Positions 3,569 to 58,149 of a stretch of 64,000 nucleotides of DNA are shown here, piece by piece. The notes under the pieces are model-generated. The model was given only the letters and a program-made list of their open reading frames with translations, did not search any database and was not told the DNA's origin. Location: assembly GCA_964348825.1 (NCBI GenBank), contig CAYGDX010000001.1, forward strand, positions 90,909 through 154,908, given 5' to 3'. The number at the start of each line of letters is the position of its first letter. The stretch's first letter is position 1. The stretch is from an uncultured Gammaproteobacteria bacterium (GTDB lineage Bacteria; Patescibacteriota; Patescibacteriia; Veblenbacterales; UBA10138). Made by a program: the position numbers and the translations under genes.

Positions 3569-3809
3569 TTGTGTAAGAAAATAATAATTTCTTCGTTAAA
3601 TAAATTAGCAGTAGATTTTAAAATCCGAATATCTAATACTGAAATCCGAAAAAGATGGAGTTTTGTATTTTGGGCTTAGAATTTTGGATTTATTTAGGAT
3701 TTAGAAATTAGAAATTAGGATTTTTTTGGATTCCCGCCTCCGCGGGAATGACAATTACTAAAACTATTAGCTATTTGCCATTTACTATTGGCTAAATTAT
3801 AATATCCTC

Positions 3810-4356: not shown

Positions 4357-5610
4357 ATGTTTAACCATTCTTCCAAACCCCATTTTTTTATCATCTTTAT
4401 CGTCATCATCAGTTTATTCGCCGGCGCATTGGGCGGCGCGGGCGCGGTTATTTGGGGCGCAGGTTTCCTTAATCTACCAAGCAATCAAAATTCATCAATC
4501 ATAAATAATTTACGTCCCTCATCAGTCAAAATTCAAGAAGAGTCAGCTACAACTTCGGTGGTGAGCAAAGTTTCACCCTCAGTCGTTAGCATTATCATCT
4601 CCAAAGATGTGGCCAAGCTTTATAATTCCACCGGCCCCAATACGCCGTTTGATGGTTTTTTTGGACAGGGCTCACCGTTTAATTTCTTTTTTGGCAATCA
4701 AATACCGCAACCAGCCCCGCGTAAAGTTCCACAAGGCAAACAAACTATTGGCGGCGGTACTGGTTTTGTAATTGATAGCGCCAAAGGTTTGATTTTAACT
4801 AACCGTCATGTGGTAGATGATACCGAGGCCGATTACACCGTGCTCACCAACGATGGCAAAAAATACGAGGCCAAGGTTTTAATTCGTGATTCTGGTAATG
4901 ATTTGGCAATTGTGCAAATAAAAGACGCCAAACTTCCGGCTTTAGAATTTGGTGATAGCGATAAAATACAAATCGGCCAAACTGTAATTGCTATTGGCAA
5001 TGCTTTAGGTGAATATCGTAACACTGTTACTAAAGGTGTAATTTCGGGCACCGCGCGCAATGTAGTAGCGGGTGATAGCCAAGGATCAAGCGAAAGTTTA
5101 GAAGGAGTTTTTCAAACTGACGCCGCTATTAATCCGGGAAATTCCGGCGGGCCGCTGGTAAATTTATCTGGCCAAGTGATTGGTATTAATACCGCGGTGA
5201 ACCGTGAAGGTCAACTCATTGGCTTTGCTATTCCATCAAACGAAGCCAAACGTTTAGTTGATAATTATCAAAAATACGGCAAAGTGGTACGGCCGTATTT
5301 AGGTATTCGTTATGTTTTAGTTACACCAGAAATGGCGCGGGCTAATGATTTGCCAGTGGATTATGGTGCTTTAGTAGTTCGCGGGCAAAATGATAATACT
5401 TTAGCGGTAGTGCCAGGGTCGCCAGCTGATAAGGCGGGCTTAGTAGAAAATGATATAGTGCTTGAAGCCGATGGTAAAAAAATTAGCACGGAGCAATCAC
5501 TAGTTAAAATTCTCTCGCGTTATAAACCAGGTGATACAGTCAAGCTTAAAATTTATCACAAAGGTGAGCAGAAAGATGTTGCCGTGAAGCTAGGGGAGTT
5601 TAAAGAATAA
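4357..5610 (+). CDS. htrA: HtrA/DegP-family periplasmic serine protease with C-terminal PDZ domain
   Basis: N-terminal membrane anchor. Trypsin-like catalytic motifs (TNRHVV, GNSGGPLVN) and a C-terminal PDZ region. Confidence 0.8.
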   Translation: MFNHSSKPHFFIIFIVIISLFAGALGGAGAVIWGAGFLNLPSNQNSSIINNLRPSSVKIQEESATTSVVSKVSPSVVSIIISKDVAKLYNSTGPNTPFDGFFGQGSPFNFFFGNQIPQPAPRKVPQGKQTIGGGTGFVIDSAKGLILTNRHVVDDTEADYTVLTNDGKKYEAKVLIRDSGNDLAIVQIKDAKLPALEFGDSDKIQIGQTVIAIGNALGEYRNTVTKGVISGTARNVVAGDSQGSSESLEGVFQTDAAINPGNSGGPLVNLSGQVIGINTAVNREGQLIGFAIPSNEAKRLVDNYQKYGKVVRPYLGIRYVLVTPEMARANDLPVDYGALVVRGQNDNTLAVVPGSPADKAGLVENDIVLEADGKKISTEQSLVKILSRYKPGDTVKLKIYHKGEQKDVAVKLGEFKE

Positions 5611-5614
5611 AACA

Positions 5615-5646
5615 AAAACTCCGACGTTCATCGTCGGAGTTTTTAA
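5615..5646 (+). terminator. Rho-independent terminator after htrA
   Basis: aaaaactccgacg-ttca-tcgtcggagttttt hairpin with flanking A/T runs. A second hairpin (cctcccctcaataggggagg) follows. Confidence 0.6.
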
Positions 5647-5840
5647 ATCCTAAAAAATTCCTCCCCTCAATAGGGGAGGTTAGGTGGGGTAATAAATAAA
5701 GCAGCCTGCAAAGGCTGTTTTTAAATTTCTAATCTCTAATAACTAATTTCTAAAAATGACTAAAATTTTAAAAATTAATTTATTGAAAATTGATTTAAAA
5801 TTGTAAATTTAAAATTAAACACTAAATACTACACCCTAAC

Positions 5841-15674: not shown

Positions 15675-15759
15675 GGTTTTACTTTAGTAATTAATGTATT
15701 AATGGTATAATAAATTGAGAATGACTGATTTTTCAAAAATCCGAAATTTATTTATTAAA

Positions 15760-15838
15760 CACTAGAACATTTAAACATTAGAACATTATTAATAAAAAAC
15801 TTTTTGTTCTTATGATCTAGTGATCTAATGTTCTAGTG
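15760..15838. repeat. Palindromic cactagaac / gttctaatgtt element (family D)
   Basis: cactagaacatttaaacattagaac...gttcttatgatctagtgatctaatgttctagtg. Related copies at 17944-18030, 21878-21912, 22270-22307, 27845-27925, 34888-34975, 43570-43632, 58048-58100, in both orientations. Confidence 0.65.
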
Positions 15839-15860
15839 ATAATTCCTTACTTCAACCATC

Positions 15861-17011: not shown

Positions 17012-17935
17012 ATGGATCCCAATTTATTACCTAATGAATTACGTGTGGGCGAAAAGGAAGAATTGTCACATCCGCCCCAACCAACATCGGTAAAGCCAGA
17101 TGCGATTTTATCATCTAAAGAGAAAGACAGGGTAATTGAGCTTGATATAAATGTAGGTTTGTGGTCAAAAATTAAATCTTGGTTTAATAAAGACGAAGTA
17201 CTAACTAGTGCGGATGACAAATCAGCGCTTGAAAAAGGTGAGGTTGATTTTGGTAAAACTTCGGCTGGTAAAATTTTAGGGATTCCTACCCATCATGGCG
17301 TACCACTTGGTGTAGTGCTCGATGTAAATTTATTGCCGGTTGAATCGCGCCCAATTGAAGAAGCCAAGCGTTATGGTGTGCATTTTTTAGCCGTGGCCGG
17401 AGCAGCTATTTTAGTAGTGATTATTGGTTATGCAATTTTACTAAGTTTAAAATCAGCTAAAGAAGCAGAATATGCCGATTTACAACGTGAAGCAGAAATT
17501 TTAACCACCGATATTACTGGTTTTAATGTCAAGCTTAATGAATTAAAATTAACTGGCCGGCGTATGAAGGTAATTACTGAAATTCTGAGTATGCGTAGCG
17601 ATTGGTTGAAGTTTTTTGATACCTTGGAAGGGTTGATAATGCCTAATGTAAGTTTCACTTCGCTATCGCTTCAATCATCAGGTAATTTTGTACTCGGGGC
17701 CGAAGGTAAAACTGTGAGTGATTTGGCTAAACAATTTTTGGTTTTTCAAGAGGGTAAAGATATTTGGGCGGAAGTGGAAATGGCCGGTGTGAGTTTGGGT
17801 AGTGGATTAGTTGAGGAAGATAGTGGATTAAGTTCTAGTGCTTCCGATTCTACGGCCAGTACAACTTTTGAATTAAAATTAAAACCAGGTTGGCTTCAGG
17901 CAGGAGAGAAAGCGATTGGTAAGAGTGAAGAGTAA
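17012..17935 (+). CDS. pilN: PilN-like type IV pilus inner-membrane assembly protein
   Basis: Position after pilM, single TM helix (FLAVAGAAILVVIIGYAILL) followed by a coiled-coil periplasmic region. Confidence 0.5.
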   Translation: MDPNLLPNELRVGEKEELSHPPQPTSVKPDAILSSKEKDRVIELDINVGLWSKIKSWFNKDEVLTSADDKSALEKGEVDFGKTSAGKILGIPTHHGVPLGVVLDVNLLPVESRPIEEAKRYGVHFLAVAGAAILVVIIGYAILLSLKSAKEAEYADLQREAEILTTDITGFNVKLNELKLTGRRMKVITEILSMRSDWLKFFDTLEGLIMPNVSFTSLSLQSSGNFVLGAEGKTVSDLAKQFLVFQEGKDIWAEVEMAGVSLGSGLVEEDSGLSSSASDSTASTTFELKLKPGWLQAGEKAIGKSEE

Positions 17936-18055
17936 GAGTTTTTCACTAGAACATTAGATCACTAGATCATAAGAACAAAAAGTTTTTTATTAATAATGTT
18001 CTAATGTTTAAATGTTCTAGTGTTCTAATGAATAAGATTTAGAATTTTAATTACT

Positions 18056-21874: not shown

Positions 21875-21912
21875 ATAATCATAATAACATTAGATCACTA
21901 GAACATTAGAAC

Positions 21913-22272
21913 ATGAGTCAAGAATTCAGAGAGCAGTTAAAAAAGAAAATGGACGAATATGTAAAATTAGTTTATCGCGTGACTAAAAATTATCCCCGCG
22001 ACGAGTTATATGGAGTAACTTCACAATTAAGAAGATCAACCCTATCCGTGATATTAAATTATTTAGAGGGTTATGCCAGGCGCCGAATTCCAACTTGCTA
22101 TCATTTTTGGGAAATATCTTATGGTTCGTTACAAGAAAGTAGATATTTATTAGATTTATCATTAAATGAAAATTATTTATTAATTGAAAATCACAAAACA
22201 TTAAGTGTTTTAGCTGATGAAATTAGTGCTATGCTCTGGCAATCCTTGAAGAATTTAGAAAAATACAAATAG
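21913..22272 (+). CDS. Four-helix-bundle protein (23S rRNA intervening-sequence protein family)
   Basis: SQLRRSTLSVILNYLEGYARRR matches the 'four helix bundle protein' family signature. Bracketed on both sides by family D repeats. Confidence 0.7.
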   Translation: MSQEFREQLKKKMDEYVKLVYRVTKNYPRDELYGVTSQLRRSTLSVILNYLEGYARRRIPTCYHFWEISYGSLQESRYLLDLSLNENYLLIENHKTLSVLADEISAMLWQSLKNLEKYK

Positions 22273-22307
22273 TTAATGTTTAAGTGTTCTAATGTTTTAA
22301 TGTTCAA

Positions 22308-23390
22308 GTGTTTATGTCCACCACCGACTCCTTAACCATCAATCGCTTGCTCACTGAAGCCGCAGAAAGGCAGGTATCTGACCTTCATTTTACTGTTGGT
22401 GCAAATCCAGCCGCGAGGCGTGACGGCAAGCTTGAAACATTAAACGCCGAGCCACCCGTCACCGAAGAATTTATGAAAGGGTTGGTCGAATTTTTTATTC
22501 CGGAGAATAAGAGAGCTCGTTTTGCCAGCGCGCAAACTTTAACCTTAACTTATAATTTTGGCACACGCGCTCGTTTTCGGGTGCACGGAAGCTACCAAAA
22601 GGGTTATCCAGCTTTAGATTTACATTATGTACCATGGCAAGCGCCCGACGTTACAACTATGGGTTTGCCTAAAATTTTACTTAATTCTATAAAAGAAAAA
22701 GAGGGATTGATTCTTTTGAGTGGTTTGCAGGGGTCAGGCCGTAGTGCTACGCTCGCGGCGCTACTTGATAATATTAATCATACACAAGCTAAACATATTG
22801 TAACGATTGAAGATCCAGTGGAGTATTTACTGACCAACGATAAATCATTTATCAAACAAAAAGATGTCGGTGATGATATTCCAAGTGTGGAAGATGCTTT
22901 GGGTGGCCTTAAAGATGAAGATGTAGATGTGCTAGCGATTGATGTACCGCTTAATATGGCGGCTTGGCGCGAAATTTTTACACGGGCGCGGAGCGGCACT
23001 TTAGTTTTTGTGGCGATGGAAGCCGATACTTCAGTGCGGGCGCTAGAATCACTTATTTTAAGTTGGCCGGGTGCTGAAGCTGATAGTTTAAAACAATTAT
23101 TAAGCGAAACACTTCTCATTGCTACTTCACAGCGCTTAGTGCCACGCGTTGGCGGTGGTAAGGTAATGGTAGTAGAATGTTTACTTGGTAATACGCCGGT
23201 TAAATCATTAATTCGCGATGGTAAGATTTTACAACTCCAAAATGTACTGGAATTATCGCGTGAAGATGGTATGGTGTCACTCGAAAAAAGATTGTCTGAT
23301 TTAGTAAAAACTGGAGAAATTACACAAGAAGATGCAGTAGCTCACGCTGTGAACAAAGAGGTGATTGGGTCGATGTTGCGGGTGAAGTAA
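22308..23390 (+). CDS. pilT: PilT-like retraction-ATPase homolog with degenerate catalytic motifs
   Basis: PilT-length GspE-family core. Walker A is GLQGSGRSAT (Lys to Arg, Pro to Gln). Walker B region DEDVDVLAIDVP lacks the catalytic Glu. His-box GTLVFVAMEA lacks the His. Confidence 0.7.
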   Translation: MFMSTTDSLTINRLLTEAAERQVSDLHFTVGANPAARRDGKLETLNAEPPVTEEFMKGLVEFFIPENKRARFASAQTLTLTYNFGTRARFRVHGSYQKGYPALDLHYVPWQAPDVTTMGLPKILLNSIKEKEGLILLSGLQGSGRSATLAALLDNINHTQAKHIVTIEDPVEYLLTNDKSFIKQKDVGDDIPSVEDALGGLKDEDVDVLAIDVPLNMAAWREIFTRARSGTLVFVAMEADTSVRALESLILSWPGAEADSLKQLLSETLLIATSQRLVPRVGGGKVMVVECLLGNTPVKSLIRDGKILQLQNVLELSREDGMVSLEKRLSDLVKTGEITQEDAVAHAVNKEVIGSMLRVK

Positions 23391-25263: not shown

Positions 25264-25382
25264 TGTTTTATAATTTTGGATTTGTTTAGTATTTAGATAT
25301 TAGAATTTAGGATTTAAATAAAACGCCATTGTGTACTTATTTGCCTAGTGTTATAATTATATCGTCAAATAGAATATTATAA

Positions 25383-27842: not shown

Positions 27843-27962
27843 TGATTTTTATTAGAACATTAAATCATTAGAACATAAAAACAAAATTGATAAAATGTTT
27901 CAGTGTTCTAGTGTTTTAATGAATATACTTCGGATTTAAAAACAACTAGTAGGTATTTTATT

Positions 27963-33392: not shown

Positions 33393-34877
33393 TTGAAATT
33401 AAATACTATGTCTTTAACCCAATACAATTTATCTGAATTAAGTCAGAAGATACAATCTCAAGAACTTACAGCCCGCGAAGTCGTGGCCGATTATTTAAAA
33501 AAATCAACGGCTGATTTTACGTCTAAAAAATCTTTAGGAGTTTATTTAACTTTGGCCTCAGAGCAAGCATTAGCTCGGGCCTCCGAAATTGATAAAAAAA
33601 TTACTGCAGGCGAAAATGCGGGAGAACTCGCCGGCGTGCCAATTGCAGTAAAAGATATAATTGTAACTCGCGGTATAAACACCACTGCTGGTTCTAAAAT
33701 TTTAAAAAATTATGTACCGCCCTATTCGGCTACAGTAGTGGAAAAATTAGAAAGTGTCGGCGCGATTGTAATTGGTAAAACTAATTGCGACGAATTTGCC
33801 ATGGGTGCTTCAGGTGAGAATTCGGGGTTTCATCCCACTCATAATCCGTGGGATGTGCTCCGCGTACCCGGTGGTTCATCAAGTGGTAGTGCCGCGGCGG
33901 TAGCGGCAGGGTTTGCCCCAGCGGCGCTCGGCACTGATACTGGTGGCTCAATTCGTCAGCCCGCAGCTTTTTGCGGTGTAGTTGGTTTTAAACCAACTTA
34001 TGGCCGCGTGTCGCGTTTTGGATTGATGGCCATGACGTCGTCGCTTGATCAAGCTGGGCCCTTTGCGCGTACAGTAGCTGATGCATCATTGTTACTTAAA
34101 ATTATGTCAGGTGTCGATAAGCGCGATGCTACTAGCGTTAACACTTCCGTGCCTGATTATCCAGCTTTATTAAATAAAGATATTAAAAAAATAAAAATCG
34201 GTGTGCCTAAAGAATTTTTTGGCGAAGGTCTTGTGCCTGAGGTAAAAAAAGTGGTTGAAGAGGCGATTGATAAATTAGCCGAACTTGGCGCAGAAATTAT
34301 ACCAGTTAGTTTACCGAGTATGCCTTATGCCCTCGCCGCTTATTATATTTTATGTCCAGCCGAAGTAAGTACAAATTTAGCGCGCTTTGATGGTTTGAAG
34401 TATGGAGAAAGTTTAAGAGATAAAGATTTATTTACTACTTTAGCTAAAACGCGCGGGGAATTATTTGGTCGCGAAGTAAAGCGTCGCATAATGCTGGGTA
34501 CCTTTGTTTTATCGGCTGGTTATTATGATGCTTATTATAAATCAGCCCTCGCCGCACGTGAAGCAATTAAGAGTGATTTTAATCGTGTATTTAAAGAAGT
34601 AGATATACTAGCTACGCCAACTACACCAACTACGGCTTTTGAGCTGGGGAGTAAAAATCAAGATCCGCTCGCTATGTATTTGGCTGATGTTTATACTGTG
34701 CCCGTAAATATCGCAGGGTTACCAGCTATTTCCGTGCCATGTGGATTATCAGCCGGACTCCCAGTTGGTTTACAGTTGATTGGTAATATGTGGCAGGAAG
34801 AGAAGATTTTGCAAATGGCGTATAATTATGAACAAGCAACGGAGTGGAGTAAATTAAGGCCAAAAATAAAATCTTAA
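33393..34877 (+). CDS. gatA: Glutamyl/aspartyl-tRNA amidotransferase subunit A
   Basis: Amidase signature GGSSSGSAAAVAAG...GTDTGGSIRQPAAFCG. Alternative start at 33408 (MSLTQ). Confidence 0.9.
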   Translation: MKLNTMSLTQYNLSELSQKIQSQELTAREVVADYLKKSTADFTSKKSLGVYLTLASEQALARASEIDKKITAGENAGELAGVPIAVKDIIVTRGINTTAGSKILKNYVPPYSATVVEKLESVGAIVIGKTNCDEFAMGASGENSGFHPTHNPWDVLRVPGGSSSGSAAAVAAGFAPAALGTDTGGSIRQPAAFCGVVGFKPTYGRVSRFGLMAMTSSLDQAGPFARTVADASLLLKIMSGVDKRDATSVNTSVPDYPALLNKDIKKIKIGVPKEFFGEGLVPEVKKVVEEAIDKLAELGAEIIPVSLPSMPYALAAYYILCPAEVSTNLARFDGLKYGESLRDKDLFTTLAKTRGELFGREVKRRIMLGTFVLSAGYYDAYYKSALAAREAIKSDFNRVFKEVDILATPTTPTTAFELGSKNQDPLAMYLADVYTVPVNIAGLPAISVPCGLSAGLPVGLQLIGNMWQEEKILQMAYNYEQATEWSKLRPKIKS

Positions 34878-34997
34878 ATCTTATTCATTGGAAAACTAGA
34901 ACATTTAAACATTAGAACATTTTAATAAAAAACTTTTTGTTCTTATGTTCTAGTGATTTAATGTTCTAGTGAAAATTATTACTCTTACTAAATAACC

Positions 34998-35570: not shown

Positions 35571-35793
35571 ATTTAAAATCCTAAATCCGAATATCTAAAT
35601 CCTAAATAAATCCCAATGATTAAAAGCCAAAATTGAATTTTAAATTATAGATTTTAAATCAATTTTTAATGACTTAATTTTAAAACATTTAAATATTTAT
35701 TAATTTAATCATTGAATAAAAATTTAAAATTAAAAATTTTAGTTATTTTTTAGAAATTAGATATTAGAGATTAGAAATTTTGAAAATTGCTTT

Positions 35794-36534: not shown

Positions 36535-36590
36535 GAGTTTTTTAAAAATCCGAAATTCGAATATCTAAATCCTAAATAAATTCCAAAAGT

Positions 36591-36760
36591 CGTGCGGCCT
36601 CGTCGTAGGGTTTGTACAGAGCGCAAGGCAAACGAGCGTCCGGTTCGGGCGTGCTGTGGTAGTTGTGCATAGCCCGAACCAGCTCGTTTGGCGAGCACTG
36701 TTCAAACCCGAAGACACAGGCCGCGATTCTTGGTTACTTCTATTAAAGAAGTAACAAAAT
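36591..36760 (+). repeat. Structured about-170-nt element (family C), forward orientation; possible small ncRNA or cruciform-forming MITE
   Basis: Long stem caaacgagcgtccggttcgggc...gcccgaaccagctcgtttg plus terminal hairpin ggttacttct-attaa-agaagtaacc. Related copies at 37667-37853 (reverse), 39899-40170 (with about 100-nt hairpin insertion), 52622-52850 (diverged). Confidence 0.5.
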
Positions 36761-37632: not shown

Positions 37633-37666
37633 TATAGAATTAAAATTAGTTTATTTGTTTTTTTGT

Positions 37667-37853
37667 CACTTCTCTAGGAGAAGTAACCAAGAGTCGCAAC
37701 CTTTGTCTCCAAGTCAGGCAGTACTCGTCAAACTCGCTGGTCAGGCCTATGCACATCGACCACAAACACGGCCTGACCGGACGCTCGTTTAACTTCCCTG
37801 CCTACCGGCAGGCAGGCGCTCTGCACTGACTTTACGACGAGGTTGCACAACGG
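37667..37853 (-). repeat. Family C structured element, inverted orientation, with compensatory stem changes
   Basis: Reverse-complement alignment to 36591-36760. Stem ggttcgggc/gcccgaacc is replaced by ggtcaggcc/ggcctgacc (covariation). Extra hairpin cctgcctaccggcaggcagg. Confidence 0.5.
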
Positions 37854-39496: not shown

Positions 39497-39520
39497 CTTA
39501 GGGATTTTTAGTTTTTCATT

Positions 39521-39565
39521 TGGCGGGCCCGGCCGGATTCGAACCGGTGATCTTCTCCGTGACCC
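39521..39565 (-). repeat. Duplicate of the 3' half of tRNA-Asp (anticodon-stem 3' strand through CCA)
   Basis: Reverse complement tcacGGAGAAGATCACCGGTTCGAATCCGGCCGGGCCCGCCA is identical to the 3' 42 nt of the intact tRNA at 39619-39696. Preceded by hairpin ccccgtagagacacgcttgtcttctacgggg instead of a tRNA 5' half. Confidence 0.6.
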
Positions 39566-39618
39566 CGTAGAAGACAAGCGTGTCTCTACGGGGCACAGCA
39601 GTGAGGTATTTGATTATT

Positions 39619-39696
39619 TGGCGGGCCCGGCCGGATTCGAACCGGTGATCTTCTCCGTGACAGGGAGACGTGTTAACCGGGCTACACCACGGGCCC
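39619..39696 (-). tRNA. tRNA-Asp (anticodon GUC), CCA encoded
   Basis: Reverse complement folds as GGGCCCG-TG-GTGT-AGCCCGGTTA-ACAC-G-TCTCC-CTGTCAC-GGAGA-AGATC-ACCGG-TTCGAAT-CCGGC-CGGGCCC-G-CCA. Perfect 7-bp acceptor stem, U33, A37. One A.C mismatch closing the T-stem. Confidence 0.7.
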
Positions 39697-39739
39697 AGCA
39701 AATAATCAAATTAATTTTGTTTAGGGCTACTGCGCCCCG

Positions 39740-39790
39740 TAGACCAAAAGGTTCTTCGGGGCACCACGGGCCCAGCAAAGGAAAAACAGA
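39740..39790 (-). repeat. Duplicate of tRNA-Asp 5' end interrupted by a ccccg..cgggg hairpin
   Basis: Reverse complement GGGCCCGTGGTG-[ccccgaagaaccttttggtctacgggg cgca]-GTAGCCC matches the first 12 nt of the tRNA. After the hairpin it resumes with D-loop nt GTAGCCC, then diverges. Confidence 0.5.
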
Positions 39791-39898
39791 CGCTTTATTA
39801 ATATAGCAGAAACAATATTTATTTCAAGGGGTATATTAAAAATCCTAAATCCGAAACCCAAACTTCTAAATAAATCAAAAATCCCAATTCCCAAAAGT

Positions 39899-40170
39899 CG
39901 TGTGGCCTCGTCGTAGGGTTTGTACAGAGCGCAAGGCAAACGAGCGTCCGGTTCGGGCGTGCTGTGGTAGTTGTGCACCCGCCTGCCGAAGCTGTTTCCC
40001 CAAGTTAACGTACGATGATTAGTATACTTTAGTTAACTATTAGAAATACTAAAACTAAGTTGGGCTAGCGGCGGGCAGGTAGCCCGAACCAGCTCGTTTG
40101 GCGAGCACTGTTCAAACCCGTAGACAAAGGCCGCGATTCTTGGTTACTTCTACTAAAGAAGTAACAAAAT
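39899..40170 (+). repeat. Family C structured element with about 100-nt hairpin insertion
   Basis: Same 5' (cgtgtggcctcgtcgtagggtttgtacagagcgcaaggcaaacgagcgtccggttcgggcgtgctgtggtagttgtgca) and 3' (agcccgaaccagctcgtttggcgagcactgttcaaacccg...ggttacttctactaaagaagtaac) arms as 36591-36760. Inserted stem-loop cccgcctgccg...cggcgggcaggt. Confidence 0.5.
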
Positions 40171-40174
40171 CGGT

Positions 40175-40203
40175 TTGACAACTTTCGAAATTTCCTGTAT
40201 AAT
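40175..40203 (+). promoter_or_regulatory. Consensus sigma-70-type promoter (TTGACA-17 nt-TATAAT)
   Basis: ttgaca at 40175-40180, 17-nt spacer, tataat at 40198-40203. Immediately abuts the 3' end of the family C element. Confidence 0.6.
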
Positions 40204-40237
40204 AGATATATAAATAATAAAACAAATACAAAAATTT

Positions 40238-40423
40238 ATGCGGCCGGGATTTCAATCCAATTTTCAAGCTAATTCTAAGAAGCGCGTAGGCGCTGGTTCT
40301 AACTATGTTTGTACATGGCGCAAACCAACCAGTACTAACCTTTGGCCGAGAGTTTGGCAGCAAATTCGTCGCGGCGCACTTTGGATTTTATTTGATGAAA
40401 CTTTTACTTCCACCCACCACTAA
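40238..40423 (+). other. Leader region: 61-codon basic Trp-containing ORF or small ncRNA, ending inside a terminator loop
   Basis: No Shine-Dalgarno. ORF stop codon TAA (40421-40423) lies in the loop of the first terminator hairpin. Region bounded by a perfect promoter and tandem terminators. Confidence 0.3.
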
Positions 40424-40470
40424 GGTGTGGTGTTTTTATTTTAAGCCGTAACACACGGCTTAGTTTTGTT
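40415..40470 (+). terminator. Two tandem rho-independent terminators directly upstream of the 923-aa gene start
   Basis: caccac-taaggt-gtggtg followed by tttttatttt, then aagccgt-aacac-acggctt followed by agttttgtttt. The second ends 3 nt before ATG at 40473. Confidence 0.6.
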
Positions 40471-40472
40471 TT

Positions 40473-43244
40473 ATGTCATCAGAAAGCGCATTATCATCGA
40501 TGGATAATAGCAGACAACAAGTAGGCGTAGATACTCAAGGAGTAGATGTTTTTAGTATTACGGATGGGAAAAAAGTTACAATAGATCATGAGTCTCAACG
40601 AATTAGAAATACTCCTGATTATGCTAAATATCGAGAGGACTTGGATGAAATTTTTGACTATTGGAAAAATGATCCAGATGGTAGAGTAAGTTTGTTTTCG
40701 ACGTTCAATAAAAAAACAAATGTAGACGAAGAATTATTATCTTTAGCGGCTACGTACTTTGGTGAAGACAAAGAAGTGTTAAAGGCAGTAGAAGAAGATG
40801 AAGTAGAGCCGAGACAGTCGAGTCAGTTTCATAGTTATTTAGATGGAATCAAAAGAGTCATTTCTAAATTAGACAAGCCCAAATTTGTTTTGGAATTAAT
40901 TCTTGGTAGTAATTATAAATACATTGAGGACGAAGGTGAACCAGAAGAAAAGGAAGTGCACATGTTTGTTGATGCTAAAAATAAGGGCAGTATTATAGAA
41001 CTGGCCATAGCGGATTATTTAACAGGTGTGAATTACAGCCCTGTGTCAGAGGTAGAAAGTGATAATGGTAAAATTATACCTGAACCAGTAGTGTCAAATT
41101 CAGATGATACAACTAAAACTGTAACAAATGAGCAGGTTGACGCTGTCACTTCAACAGTAAAGTCAGATAAAGTTGAAGTAAAAAGCTCTGGAGCTGATAG
41201 TAGCCCATTTAAAGCACCCACCCGCGAAGAAATTTTACAAAATAAACCAAGTGAATTAAAAGATCCCTCAAAGGTAGTTAAAAAAGTCGATGATGATAAG
41301 GATAAGGGTAGTAAAGAAAATAAAAAAACAGAGCCGGCTAAAAACGAGAAAAAAGGTGGAGACGGTGGTGATGGAAAAGAAAATGAAAAATCTCGACTCA
41401 AAGAAGAGATTCAATGGTTTTTGCGTCAGGAAAATCTGAAGGGTTTAACCGTTGAACAAATTGAATGGCAGTTTCTAGAGGGAAATTTGTCTTCGTATTA
41501 TAAAGATAAGGATTATTTAAATTCATTGATGGTTCATAGAAATGTTTGGCGAACTGAAGTGGAATCATTTATTGAAACCATTAAACAAGATAAGTATTTC
41601 TCGGCTAAAAAGTTGATAGAAGAATCAGCTGCCTTTTTGGCGCCGTATTCAACTGAAAAACATCAAGCGGGAGAGTGGATCGTATACGATAAAATAAAAT
41701 ATGATTATGATTTATTACCAAAAGAAGTGGTGGATGAAAAAGAAGTAGCGGAAGGAAAAAAGGGCCAAAAAGATTTTCAAATAAAAGCTTTAGAGCAGAT
41801 TTTTAGTAAAATAGTTTATAGTGGCAAATGGAAAAAAGGTAGTCAGGATCAGCCGGAGTTGAAAGGTTCCGAGTTAGATAAAGATTTAGATGTGCGCTTA
41901 TGTTTGTGGTTATTGGAGCGGGCTGGTTTTAGCACAAACTCAAAAGCTGTTGATGTACCAGAAAGTCTAGTGGATGGCGCAACTTTTGATGCTGGTAGCA
42001 GAAGTGGTTTAAGTATTGATAAAAGTTTTGATTGGAAGTTAGAAGATGGTCAGGCAAAACGCGGAAAAAAACAGTTAGGCGCGATTTTTGATAATCACCA
42101 ACCACAAAATGGTTTGCATACTTCGGCAGCATATCAGCTTAATTTTTTCTTACGTGCAGCCGAAGAAATGGGATTATTTGATAACGAAGATAATGATCAT
42201 ACAAAAAAGAATCAAAGCGAATACATTAAATTAGATAGAAAAGTAGTTGATATGATGGTAAATATGTCGATTGATGAAGACAATGGTCGATTAGTAAAAG
42301 ACATTAAGCAGTTTAACGAGAGTGACAAAAATCTACGTGGTTTAGTTGGTAGAATTAAAACCTCTAAATTTGATGATTTACATGATTTTATTATTACTGT
42401 ATTACAATCTGATAGGAATAAAAGTTTGATAGAAAGAGATAATACTAAGAAAGTATATAACAATATATTGGATTATCCATTATCTGATAAATGGTTAGAA
42501 AAATTTAATTTAATCTGGCCAGATACAAAAAATAAAGGTAAATACACTGGTTGGGCATATCAACAAAAAGGCAATATCGAGCAGACTCACCGGATATTTA
42601 TGGTTGAGGGCAGTAAAGATAAATTAAAGAGTGATGAAGAGTTAGAAAAAGAAGGTTGGTTAGTAAGATTTTCTGATAAGAGTGGTAAAGATTTGCGCTT
42701 TGTAGTAAATATTCCTGGATTTGAGGGAGATTTTTATGGCGGCCACGTAGCGGCTCGAGCGCTTGGTTTTGATGGTATGATAAAATATACTCCAGAAAAG
42801 GCAAGTTTTTTAATTAATGTTTTAAAACCCGAATTATCGCTTAATAAAATTGCCGGAGATATTAAACAAGGTCAAATGGTTCGTGATACATTAGATATTA
42901 AACCTCCTAATGCTCAGGAGCTTAAGACAACATTACGTGAGATGTTAAATACATTATCACCCGGTTTGGCTGATAAGGCGCAAGGTAAGCTCAAAGAGTA
43001 TTTATTATTAGAAGACAAGGTGGAAAATGATTGGCAACAAGTAGATAAAGAATTTGTAAAACAAGAGTTAAAAACTTGGTACGATAAATTACCAGCCAAT
43101 AAAAAGCCAACTGATTTAGAGAGTCAGAATCAGGAATTTGAATGGCTTTTGGAATATAAATTAGTTAGCTTGAAAAGTAAGTTGTATAATGAATATATGG
43201 AATTATATAAAAAAATTAAGGATCTAAAATCTAAAGTTAAATAA
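40473..43244 (+). CDS. Hypothetical large acidic protein (923 aa), no signal peptide, no recognised domain
   Basis: Long uninterrupted ORF, Lys/Glu/Asp-rich with low-complexity KDKGSKENKKTEPAKNEKKGGDGGDGKENEK segment. Confidence 0.5.
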   Translation: MSSESALSSMDNSRQQVGVDTQGVDVFSITDGKKVTIDHESQRIRNTPDYAKYREDLDEIFDYWKNDPDGRVSLFSTFNKKTNVDEELLSLAATYFGEDKEVLKAVEEDEVEPRQSSQFHSYLDGIKRVISKLDKPKFVLELILGSNYKYIEDEGEPEEKEVHMFVDAKNKGSIIELAIADYLTGVNYSPVSEVESDNGKIIPEPVVSNSDDTTKTVTNEQVDAVTSTVKSDKVEVKSSGADSSPFKAPTREEILQNKPSELKDPSKVVKKVDDDKDKGSKENKKTEPAKNEKKGGDGGDGKENEKSRLKEEIQWFLRQENLKGLTVEQIEWQFLEGNLSSYYKDKDYLNSLMVHRNVWRTEVESFIETIKQDKYFSAKKLIEESAAFLAPYSTEKHQAGEWIVYDKIKYDYDLLPKEVVDEKEVAEGKKGQKDFQIKALEQIFSKIVYSGKWKKGSQDQPELKGSELDKDLDVRLCLWLLERAGFSTNSKAVDVPESLVDGATFDAGSRSGLSIDKSFDWKLEDGQAKRGKKQLGAIFDNHQPQNGLHTSAAYQLNFFLRAAEEMGLFDNEDNDHTKKNQSEYIKLDRKVVDMMVNMSIDEDNGRLVKDIKQFNESDKNLRGLVGRIKTSKFDDLHDFIITVLQSDRNKSLIERDNTKKVYNNILDYPLSDKWLEKFNLIWPDTKNKGKYTGWAYQQKGNIEQTHRIFMVEGSKDKLKSDEELEKEGWLVRFSDKSGKDLRFVVNIPGFEGDFYGGHVAARALGFDGMIKYTPEKASFLINVLKPELSLNKIAGDIKQGQMVRDTLDIKPPNAQELKTTLREMLNTLSPGLADKAQGKLKEYLLLEDKVENDWQQVDKEFVKQELKTWYDKLPANKKPTDLESQNQEFEWLLEYKLVSLKSKLYNEYMELYKKIKDLKSKVK

Positions 43245-43245
43245 T

Positions 43246-43572
43246 ATGGATAAAGCTAATGAGTTGTTTGACAATTATTTAAACCAAGTATTAGATAAAT
43301 CCTCTGGTGGTGTTTTGTCTTCCGAGCAAATTACGGCTTTAAGGCAGGAGTTAAGTGGTGTACTAGAAGAAAAATTATATTTAACTTCACTCAATGCTTT
43401 AAATGAGGCAGATACTGCTGCTTATGCGGAATTTATACAAACGGCCGATGATGTTTCGCTTCCCGCACAAATAGAATTTTTTAGTAAACATATTCCCGAG
43501 TATCAAACATTTTTAAAACAGGTTTTAGATGGGGCAGTGGAGGAGTTTGTGAAGTTGAGCGTGTCAAAATAA
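43246..43572 (+). CDS. Small acidic hypothetical protein (108 aa), chaperone-like
   Basis: Start 2 nt after the upstream stop (translational coupling). Acidic helical protein. Confidence 0.4.
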   Translation: MDKANELFDNYLNQVLDKSSGGVLSSEQITALRQELSGVLEEKLYLTSLNALNEADTAAYAEFIQTADDVSLPAQIEFFSKHIPEYQTFLKQVLDGAVEEFVKLSVSK

Positions 43573-43635
43573 CATTAGATCGCTAAATCATTAAAACAAA
43601 AAATTGATTTAATGTTCTAATGTTTAAGTGTTCTA

Positions 43636-43821
43636 ATGAAAGTTGTTAAACATATGACTGACGAAGAAAAAATAAAAAAAATTGAAAGTATTTACGCTGA
43701 TTTTGAACGTAAGTTAGCGCGTCATCGTACACACGTACAGCAGGTAGTGCATAGTACTTTACAGCAAATTGATAAAGAAAAAGCCAACACCATTTTAGAA
43801 TCATTTAAACAAAGCAAATAA
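43636..43821 (+). CDS. Small hypothetical protein (61 aa)
   Basis: ORF between family D and family B repeats. Helical, charged. Confidence 0.25.
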   Translation: MKVVKHMTDEEKIKKIESIYADFERKLARHRTHVQQVVHSTLQQIDKEKANTILESFKQSK

Positions 43822-54936: not shown

Positions 54937-55026
54937 AGTAGACATTCACTAAGAAATCCGAAGCACGAATATCGAAATTCGAAAATTTTTTAGGATTTCG
55001 GATTTAGAATTTAGGATTTTGTCTTA

Positions 55027-55408: not shown

Positions 55409-55562
55409 CGTAAAAATCGAGCTATCAAGCGAGATTTTTACGTGCCCCGTGGCACGAACCAAGGTGAGTGCTTTACGGGGCTTCCTTTAGGTAGTAGCTC
55501 GATTCACGTGGCACAGCCTCGTAAAGTCTGAAGACCGCGAGGCAGGCCATCACAACTTTTGT

Positions 55563-55823
55563 ATGGGATTTACAGTTTATATTTTAGAAGAAATAGAAAG
55601 TAAAAAATGGTATATTGGTTATAGTACTAATTTACAACAAAGAATTAAGGATCATAATTCTCATAAAAATATTTCAACTAAATTTGGTAAATGGCGTTTA
55701 ATCTATGCCGAATATTATTTGCATAAGTTGGACGCTTTAGGTAGAGAAAAATTTTTAAAAAGTGGAAGCGGGCATCGTTTCCTTAAAAAACAACTTTATC
55801 ATTATCTAAACTACCTTGCGTAA
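55563..55823 (+). CDS. GIY-YIG nuclease-domain protein (small stand-alone, UPF0213-like)
   Basis: FTVYILEEIESKKWYIGYSTNLQQRIKDHN carries the GIY...YIG...R...H/N motif. Confidence 0.7.
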   Translation: MGFTVYILEEIESKKWYIGYSTNLQQRIKDHNSHKNISTKFGKWRLIYAEYYLHKLDALGREKFLKSGSGHRFLKKQLYHYLNYLA

Positions 55824-56394: not shown

Positions 56395-56606
56395 TGCCTA
56401 ATTTCTAAAAAATCCTAAATTTTAATGTCTAATTCCCAAATAAATTTTAAAATCCTAATACCCAAAAACTAAAACTTTTAGGATTTACGATTTGGGATTT
56501 ATTTAGGATTTCGGATTTAGGGCTTAGGATTTTAATAATTCCCTTGACTATATTGCTTAAATTCTGTATTATTTGATAGCTATTAAATTGTCTATTTTTC
56601 ATACCT

Positions 56607-58050: not shown

Positions 58051-58149
58051 TTATTCATTAGAGTATTAGAACACTTAAACACTAGAGCATTCGGCGCTAG
58101 TGTTTTTTATTTTGCTAAAATCGAAAAAACCAGTATAATTAAGAGCGTT

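Follow-up and report, generated by a model that had tools for sequence, protein, structure and literature searches.

A consensus promoter, 61-codon ORF and tandem terminators ahead of a giant-protein gene cluster in Patescibacteria: most likely a small-protein gene rather than an attenuator or riboswitch

Introduction

In the trp and his attenuators, a short leader open reading frame (ORF) with clustered regulatory codons is combined with alternative 2:3 and 3:4 helices in front of an amino-acid biosynthetic operon. The pyrBI attenuator has a leader ORF that runs through the whole attenuator, a single terminator and UTP-sensitive pausing, and it belongs to a pyrimidine biosynthesis operon.

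The microcin C operon, mccA-mccB, is described by Zukher et al. 2014 (PMC4231749) as having one promoter, a small ORF and an intergenic terminator, which together yield an abundant short transcript and a minor read-through transcript. According to the same paper, ribosome occupancy of the small ORF influences termination, and the product ratio is set by read-through (PMC4231749). Partial terminators within operons are also known to set protein ratios (Li et al. 2015, PMC4824070). Data from E. coli show that the ribosome cuts terminator efficiency from ~90% to <10% at a distance of 5 bp from the stop; the efficiency is 0.12-0.8 at 17-18 bp and ~0.9 beyond 30 bp (PMC4824070).

Here we describe a locus that resembles several of these systems in part. 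It lies in a 64-kb stretch of DNA, analysed as a whole and referred to below as the window, that belongs to a Patescibacteria (CPR) genome of ~38% GC. The surrounding genes include three DsbA-like genes, lgt, tRNA-Asp and tmRNA, followed by a DUF5663 gene typical of the group. The locus consists of a promoter, a small ORF and two consecutive terminators (T1 and T2) that abut a 923-codon ORF. An initial sequence-only reading had interpreted it as an attenuator-like control region or, alternatively, as a riboswitch-like leader or small noncoding RNA.

The closest described analogue is mccA-mccB, which shares the order of promoter, small ORF, terminator and downstream gene. In that system, a 7-codon ORF, mccA, encodes the peptide on which the downstream enzymes act, whereas the ORF considered here has 61 codons and is followed by genes without a recognisable enzymatic link. 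In mccA, the ribosome is described as inducing termination by relieving an upstream attenuating structure, whereas the present locus has two terminators and no upstream competing structure. A ratio device of the mccA type is compatible with the sequence, in which no + strand promoter-like site matching at least 9/12 positions occurs before 40969. Similar to pyrBI, the leader ORF reads into a terminator hairpin, the ribosome is the sole possible blocker and there is no antiterminator helix. Unlike in pyrBI, the leader ORF ends within the T1 loop and is succeeded by a second terminator, with no evident signal or pathway; the overlap of ORF and hairpin is found at T1 only, and the genes downstream of the leader are not pyrimidine genes. 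The trp and his leaders likewise have a short ORF upstream of an intrinsic terminator in the 5' leader, but the ORF here is 3-4 times longer and under purifying selection, and it comes without clustered codons, alternative helices or a biosynthetic operon for a sensed amino acid. The unit fits no known attenuator or riboswitch class. Compared with an ordinary small-protein gene ending in fail-safe tandem terminators, nothing essential differs, apart from the lineage-restricted, orphan nature of the product and a next gene whose start directly adjoins the second T-run.

Based on these comparisons and the analyses below, we propose, with a probability of about 0.5, that the locus expresses a small orphan protein as a self-contained unit, conserved in two species, which heads a giant-protein operon and ends in a leaky double terminator.

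Architecture of the locus

The locus comprises the following elements.

40175..40203, + strand: sigma-70-type promoter with the exact consensus TTGACA-17-TATAAT (12/12 match)
40210..40237, + strand: predicted AU-rich 5'UTR of about 28 nt, without a Shine-Dalgarno (SD) sequence
40238..40423, + strand: 61-codon ORF plus stop, with the product MRPGFQSNFQANSKKRVGAGSNYVCTWRKPTSTNLWPRVWQQIRRGALWILFDETFTSTHH, pI 11.4 (from the ORF list and the homologue in the related species L001)
40410..40442, + strand: intrinsic terminator T1 by folding, with its stem at 40415-40432 and T-run at 40433-40442 (TTTTTATTTT)
40441..40472, + strand: intrinsic terminator T2 by folding, with its stem at 40441-40463 and T-run at 40464-40472 (TTTTGTTTT)
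40473..43244, + strand: 923-codon ORF from the ORF list, first gene of a + strand cluster

The sequence-only reading had called the promoter the best match in the window, and it is the sole exact one in the 64 kb. By chance, 0.06 exact matches would be expected, and at least one was found in 5 of 100 shuffles. When up to one mismatch was allowed, the window held 6 matches against 0.83 expected. L001 carries an identical 12/12 promoter (5577-5605), and 50 of 54 positions agree between the two species over 40173-40226. Judging from the position of the -10 hexamer, transcription would start near 40210.

Two strong intrinsic terminators had been reported after the leader, with the stop codon of the small ORF inside the loop of the first and the ATG of the 923-codon ORF directly behind the second, at 40473. 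All of these points hold, and both terminators are conserved in L001. T1 folds with -8.6 kcal/mol, or with -10.8 kcal/mol in an alternative register (40410-40432), and is identical in L001 (5943-5960). The TAA of the small ORF (40421-40423) lies in the T1 loop, and its last two sense codons form the T1 5' arm. The T2 stem has 9 pairs (-10.7 kcal/mol, pair probability 0.97 or higher) and begins 17-19 nt past the stop codon, and its T-run ends at the ATG of the next ORF. In L001 (5969-5991), the T2 stem is kept and the loop differs; one pair is altered on both sides, from U-A to G-U. T1 and T2 stand back to back, with no sensor between them.

Conservation of the unit

L001, a Patescibacteria MAG obtained from groundwater of the Hainich H52 wells (JBBTZY010000165.1), is the sole other species in which the locus was found. 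L003 and L005-L007 are identical population copies of the L001 locus. The population copies L002-L007 and L024 are identical or differ by assembly errors only, and therefore contribute no polymorphism. A genome-contig scan with the 923-aa protein as query gave 1 locus, whereas a metagenome-contig scan with the small-ORF alignment and a viral-contig scan gave no match. A word-indexed search of 5.8 billion proteins with the small, 923-aa and 1658-aa ORFs returned the window copy and the L001 species only. Two sets of further candidates were rejected. The degenerate YVCTWRKP DNA pattern hit 16 metagenome loci, every one a chance match with in-frame stops, and the only extra matches in an exhaustive HMMER search of 1.84 billion representatives were 2 spurious repeat proteins.

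The promoter, the 61-codon ORF, T1, T2 and the abutting large-ORF ATG (0-3 nt past the last T-run) all recur in L001, so these features exceed what chance would produce. The leader is conserved in this relative: 215 of the 242 positions of 40231-40472 are identical in L001, in a gap-free alignment. Elsewhere in the syntenic stretch, the intergenic DNA of the two species cannot be aligned. The neighbouring genes share 84-89% DNA identity (about 87%) and the leader 89%, and on these figures we rejected a much stronger conservation of the leader than of the protein encoded behind it; the '42%' figure for the large ORF is an effect of its divergent centre. Conservation begins exactly at the -35 hexamer, and the DNA upstream is rearranged. 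In L001, this upstream DNA holds tRNA-Asp on the + strand and then its terminator; in the window, it holds an inverted tRNA and a 320-nt copy of an intergenic hairpin repeat. By this comparison, promoter, ORF and terminators behave as a single conserved unit.

Evidence that the small ORF is probably protein-coding

The small ORF of L001 (5766-5951) is of equal length, free of indels and 82% identical in amino acids, and NCBI annotates it as a protein. One gene caller left the small ORF uncalled (Logan contig L024). An ATG-initiated ORF of at least 61 codons arises by chance in this 232-nt transcript in 0.5% of shuffles (P=0.005). The dN/dS ratio, calculated from one species pair with two distinct sequences and 23 substitutions, is 0.29 in frame versus 0.53 and 1.11 in the other frames. 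The in-frame value is comparable to those of Lgt (0.26) and of the large-ORF N-terminus (0.31). The conservation of the small ORF that the sequence-only reading proposed to check is present in L001. The synonymous excess was significant by permutation, with P=0.016 for random placement and P=0.033 with the observed clustering kept. The codon-usage score of the small ORF (0.205) falls in the range of real genes (0.36 +/- 0.13), yet is not separable from that of spurious open frames (0.01 +/- 0.20). Contrary to the initial description, the 61-codon ORF is not the only one in the leader, as another frame holds a 48-codon ORF (40305-40451), for which the substitutions are less favourable (dN/dS 0.53).

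The start region of the small ORF is less accessible than usual. Its opening cost is 9.2 kcal/mol in the window and 11.2-11.4 kcal/mol in L001, compared with 5.1 +/- 2.3 kcal/mol for 34 genes; the window value is attained by 9% of these genes and the L001 value by none. This paired start region may weigh against translation, in a genome that hardly uses SD sequences. The small ORF does lack an SD, as first noted, but this says nothing about its translation because almost no gene in the window has one.

Across the whole window, SD sequences are almost absent from the starts of 47 ORFs, and AAGGA(A/G) is limited to a few minus-strand genes at ~50-54 kb and a couple of others. In 8 of 34 genes, a -10-like hexamer ends 6-10 nt ahead of the ATG. 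This suggests that leaderless or very short-leader mRNAs are frequent in this genome. The 5'UTR of the small ORF in L001 is about 135 nt longer. This insertion (5629-5758) is missing from the window; it includes a strong hairpin (UACGGCGGAAUCCGCCGUA) and, 10 nt ahead of the small-ORF ATG, the sequence AAGGUGG.

The 61-aa product is basic and Trp-rich. Its Trp codons are at positions 27, 36, 40 and 49 and are never adjacent, and W36 is replaced by Gly in L001. The best-conserved part of the peptide is the C-terminal half. No match to the product was found in Pfam, NCBIfam or the PDB, and among 5.8 billion proteins and 1.84 billion cluster representatives there were no homologues beyond the two species. 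The AlphaFold (AF2) model has a pLDDT of 54 and a single helix at residues 36-59, a confidence too low for use in a fold search. Another 61-aa ORF in the downstream cluster (43636-43821) shows no similarity to the leader ORF. Within the reach of these searches, the protein is an orphan restricted to two related Patescibacteria. Its predicted tryptic peptides are PGFQSNFQANSK, VGAGSNYVCTWR and GALWILFDETFTSTHH.

Taken together, the substitution pattern and conserved length on one side and the paired start region on the other lead us to consider translation of the small ORF fairly probable. The locus is most likely a small gene, predicted to encode a basic protein of 61 residues, and not an attenuator or riboswitch.

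The downstream ORF and its promoter

The 923-codon ORF is the first gene of a + strand cluster that extends to about 50 kb and continues with the DUF5663 gene, the second 61-aa ORF, a 1658-aa ORF and an M23 peptidase gene. Gene callers start the large ORF at its second ATG (40500), giving 914 aa. Neither the 923-aa nor the 1658-aa ORF contains a Pfam or NCBIfam domain, and among 5.8 billion proteins neither has a homologue outside the window and the L001 species. The N-terminal ~660 nt of the 923-aa ORF align with L001 in a block that is 89.6% identical.

Over its full length (40473-43244, compared with 6001-8937 of L001), the DNA of the large ORF aligns at the N-terminal ~220 codons and in the C-terminal part, and the centre is divergent. 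In L006, a strain of the L001 species, two proteins of 872 and 95 aa replace one of 970 aa.

No promoter-like site of at least 9/12 was found on the + strand from 40204 to 40968, and no further terminator-like site on this strand past T2 through the cluster until about 50 kb. The argument that the large ORF has no room for a promoter of its own is correct for a canonical promoter plus 5'UTR, but a leaderless start is conceivable, given the -10-like hexamers ahead of 8 of 34 genes. At the large ORF, the hexamer in the leaderless position (40461-40466, TAGTTT) matches at 3/6 and is accompanied by a poor -35. Because of the missing promoter-like site, read-through from the consensus promoter appears to be the likeliest source of mRNA for the ~9.5-kb operon.

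Proposed mode of expression

We predict that the small-protein unit operates as follows. The exact-consensus promoter would start a transcript near 40210 and, after the short AU-rich 5'UTR, the 61-codon ORF would be translated into the basic, Trp-rich protein. T1 and T2 would end most transcripts, giving an abundant short mRNA of ~230-260 nt. T1 would be unable to fold while a ribosome occupies the end of the ORF, and T2, 17-19 nt further on, would act as a back-up. Polymerases that escape both terminators would transcribe the 923-aa ORF and the genes behind it at a low ratio. As a result, the small product would be expressed at a large and mostly constant ratio to the costly giant proteins, and the proposed mechanism involves no ligand- or amino-acid-sensing switch.

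The effect of ribosomes on stop-proximal terminators in E. coli explains why a second terminator would be useful here. By analogy, a translated gene would be expected to end in tandem terminators if the ribosome that finishes translation masks the first of them. The original statement that a translating ribosome melts the hairpin would accordingly apply to T1, with the stop codon in its loop, and in part to T2, at 17-19 nt. The architecture can serve as a fixed or as a translation-dependent partial terminator.

If this reading is right, the protein is one lineage-restricted and probably highly expressed addition to the poorly known small-protein repertoire of Patescibacteria, and a consensus promoter with a leaky double terminator would be a simple ratio-setting device for a reduced genome. 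It would represent no new class of regulation, and would carry greater weight only if read-through depends on translation.

RNA structure and alternative explanations

One alternative is that the locus is a gene for a trans-acting sRNA of ~230 nt with its own promoter and terminators, in which the ORF is fortuitous and the large ORF is separately expressed. We regard this as unlikely, although it has several points in its favour. The window's strongest promoter and the tandem terminators bound a short transcript, as expected of an sRNA gene, and the segment is GC-richer than the genome (45% vs 38%). A 48-nt stretch at the 5' end (40231-40278) is invariant between the two species, and 54 of 55 positions are identical over 40231-40285. 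The consensus fold pairs this 5' end, AUG included, with 40372-40389, and all substitutions are compatible with it; the start codon is also poorly accessible, and the product is an orphan without a confident fold. One argument against an sRNA gene is the coding signal, which such a gene should lack. The indel-free ORF covers nearly the whole transcript, a length seldom reached by chance (P=0.005), and the synonymous excess is specific to its frame.

The folding results also count against the sRNA. When its terminators are removed, the leader core is no more stable than shuffled sequences (z -0.47 in the window and -0.60 in L001); the z of -2.85 for the whole leader is due to the two terminator hairpins. 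Two helices of the window MFE fold are broken in L001. No compensatory changes between the window and L001 were seen outside T2, in a comparison of two sequences whose power to reveal covariation is low. At the gathering score, the only Rfam matches in the whole window were tRNA-Asp and tmRNA, and at E<=10 the region 39500-40600 gave nothing besides the tRNA and a spurious antisense match. The Rfam search suggested by the sequence-only reading thus matched the leader to no family, and its riboswitch or noncoding RNA alternative fared poorly, with a shuffle-level core fold and compensation solely in T2.

It is doubtful that the leader is a translation-gated attenuator. In such a system, a ribosome following closely or stalled at the stop would cover T1 and partly T2, leading to read-through, whereas lagging translation would let both terminators act. 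The device would resemble coupling attenuation of the pyrBI type or an arrest-peptide switch, and the role of the ORF would be mainly regulatory. The geometry is suitable, is identical in both species and includes a stop codon in the T1 loop and a T2 situated in the zone that is ribosome-sensitive in E. coli (PMC4824070), but back-to-back terminators look more like a fail-safe gene end. The peptide is best conserved in its C-terminal half. Its full length is under purifying selection, which would be expected just as well of a functional protein. The paired start region could render translation conditional, and the large ORF has no good promoter. There is, however, no identifiable sensed signal, as the Trp codons are scattered, one of them is unconserved, and the downstream genes are not biosynthetic. 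Folding of the leader for an alternative antiterminator pairing, another proposed check, found none in either species: as long as the 3' arm of T1 is not yet made, nothing upstream in the nascent transcript pairs with the T1 5' arm, and the consensus fold leaves 40390-40414 unpaired or pairs it only across both terminators. Of the attenuator-like control first proposed, the geometry of T1 and T2 and the likely dependence of the downstream genes on read-through can be retained. Classical attenuation cannot, in view of the missing antiterminator, clustered codons and biosynthetic operon.

A more specific version, in which the 61-codon ORF is a translation sensor, and possibly an arrest element whose nascent peptide has a conserved, Trp-rich C-terminal half, strikes us as improbable. 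If it were true, a ribosome parked on the stop codon in the T1 loop would disable T1 and sterically weaken T2. The translational state, or a small molecule sensed in the exit tunnel, would then gate, in a Patescibacteria symbiont, a ~9.5-kb operon whose giant proteins evolve fast.

It is very unlikely that polymerase is carried past both terminators by a cis-regulatory leader RNA, whether riboswitch-like, protein-binding or a processive-antitermination element. The region is conserved at the head of a ~9.5-kb operon, to the degree of coding DNA and unlike other intergenic DNA, and only a processive mechanism could overcome two consecutive terminators together, but the coding signal accounts for this conservation, L001 tolerates an insertion of ~135 nt in the 5' part, and the leader shows no Rfam match at E<=10, excess stability, covariation or pairing with the terminators.

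Repeats and other features of the window

Immediately ahead of the promoter is a long imperfect hairpin (39847-40170; fold z -6.4 for 39880-40160), which ends 4 nt from the -35 hexamer. It is a copy of an intergenic repeat that occurs at least three times in the window, including 36546-36760 and 37661-37790 (minus strand). In the copy beside the promoter, a palindrome of about 100 nt (39978-40079) forms an additional apex. The repeat is absent from the L001 locus, has no Rfam match and may represent a MITE-like element or a structured RNA present in several copies. A 260-nt hairpin within it (39895-40150) was considered as a housekeeping RNA (6S or SRP) and rejected, being a copy of the intergenic repeat that is absent from the L001 locus and without an Rfam match.

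The tRNA-Asp(GTC) gene is on the minus strand in the window and on the lgt strand in L001, and is therefore inverted (39518-39563, 39619-39696, 39762-39779). The flanking DNA repeats 46 nt of its 3' part exactly and 18 nt of its 5' end, an arrangement that suggests past recombination or insertion at this gene.

Two further repeat families are found in intergenic DNA. The first is AT-rich and palindromic, measures ~120 nt ('gttctaatgtttaaatgttctagtgttctaatg') and is also present in L001; one copy lies within the giant-protein cluster, between the DUF5663 gene and the next ORF. The second is about 45 nt long ('aaatccgaaattcgaatatctaaatcctaaataaattcc') and occurs in many intergenic regions, including just upstream of tmRNA. 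Their copies in the window are as follows.

'gttctaatgtttaaatgttctagtgttctaatg' repeat: 15736-15851, 17928-18052, 34864-34986, 27846-27925, 43571-43638, 21876-21917, 22265-22312, 58051-58091
'aaatccgaaattcgaatatctaaatcctaaataaattcc' repeat: 3682-3725, 25274-25315, 35572-35616, 36540-36590, 39836-39880, 54984-55020, 56408-56452

Directly after the tmRNA gene, there is a GC-rich and apparently structured stretch (55440-55560). At about 55607-55800, a small ORF contains YIGYSTNLQQRIKDHN, which resembles a GIY-YIG nuclease motif, and a mobile element may have inserted beside ssrA.
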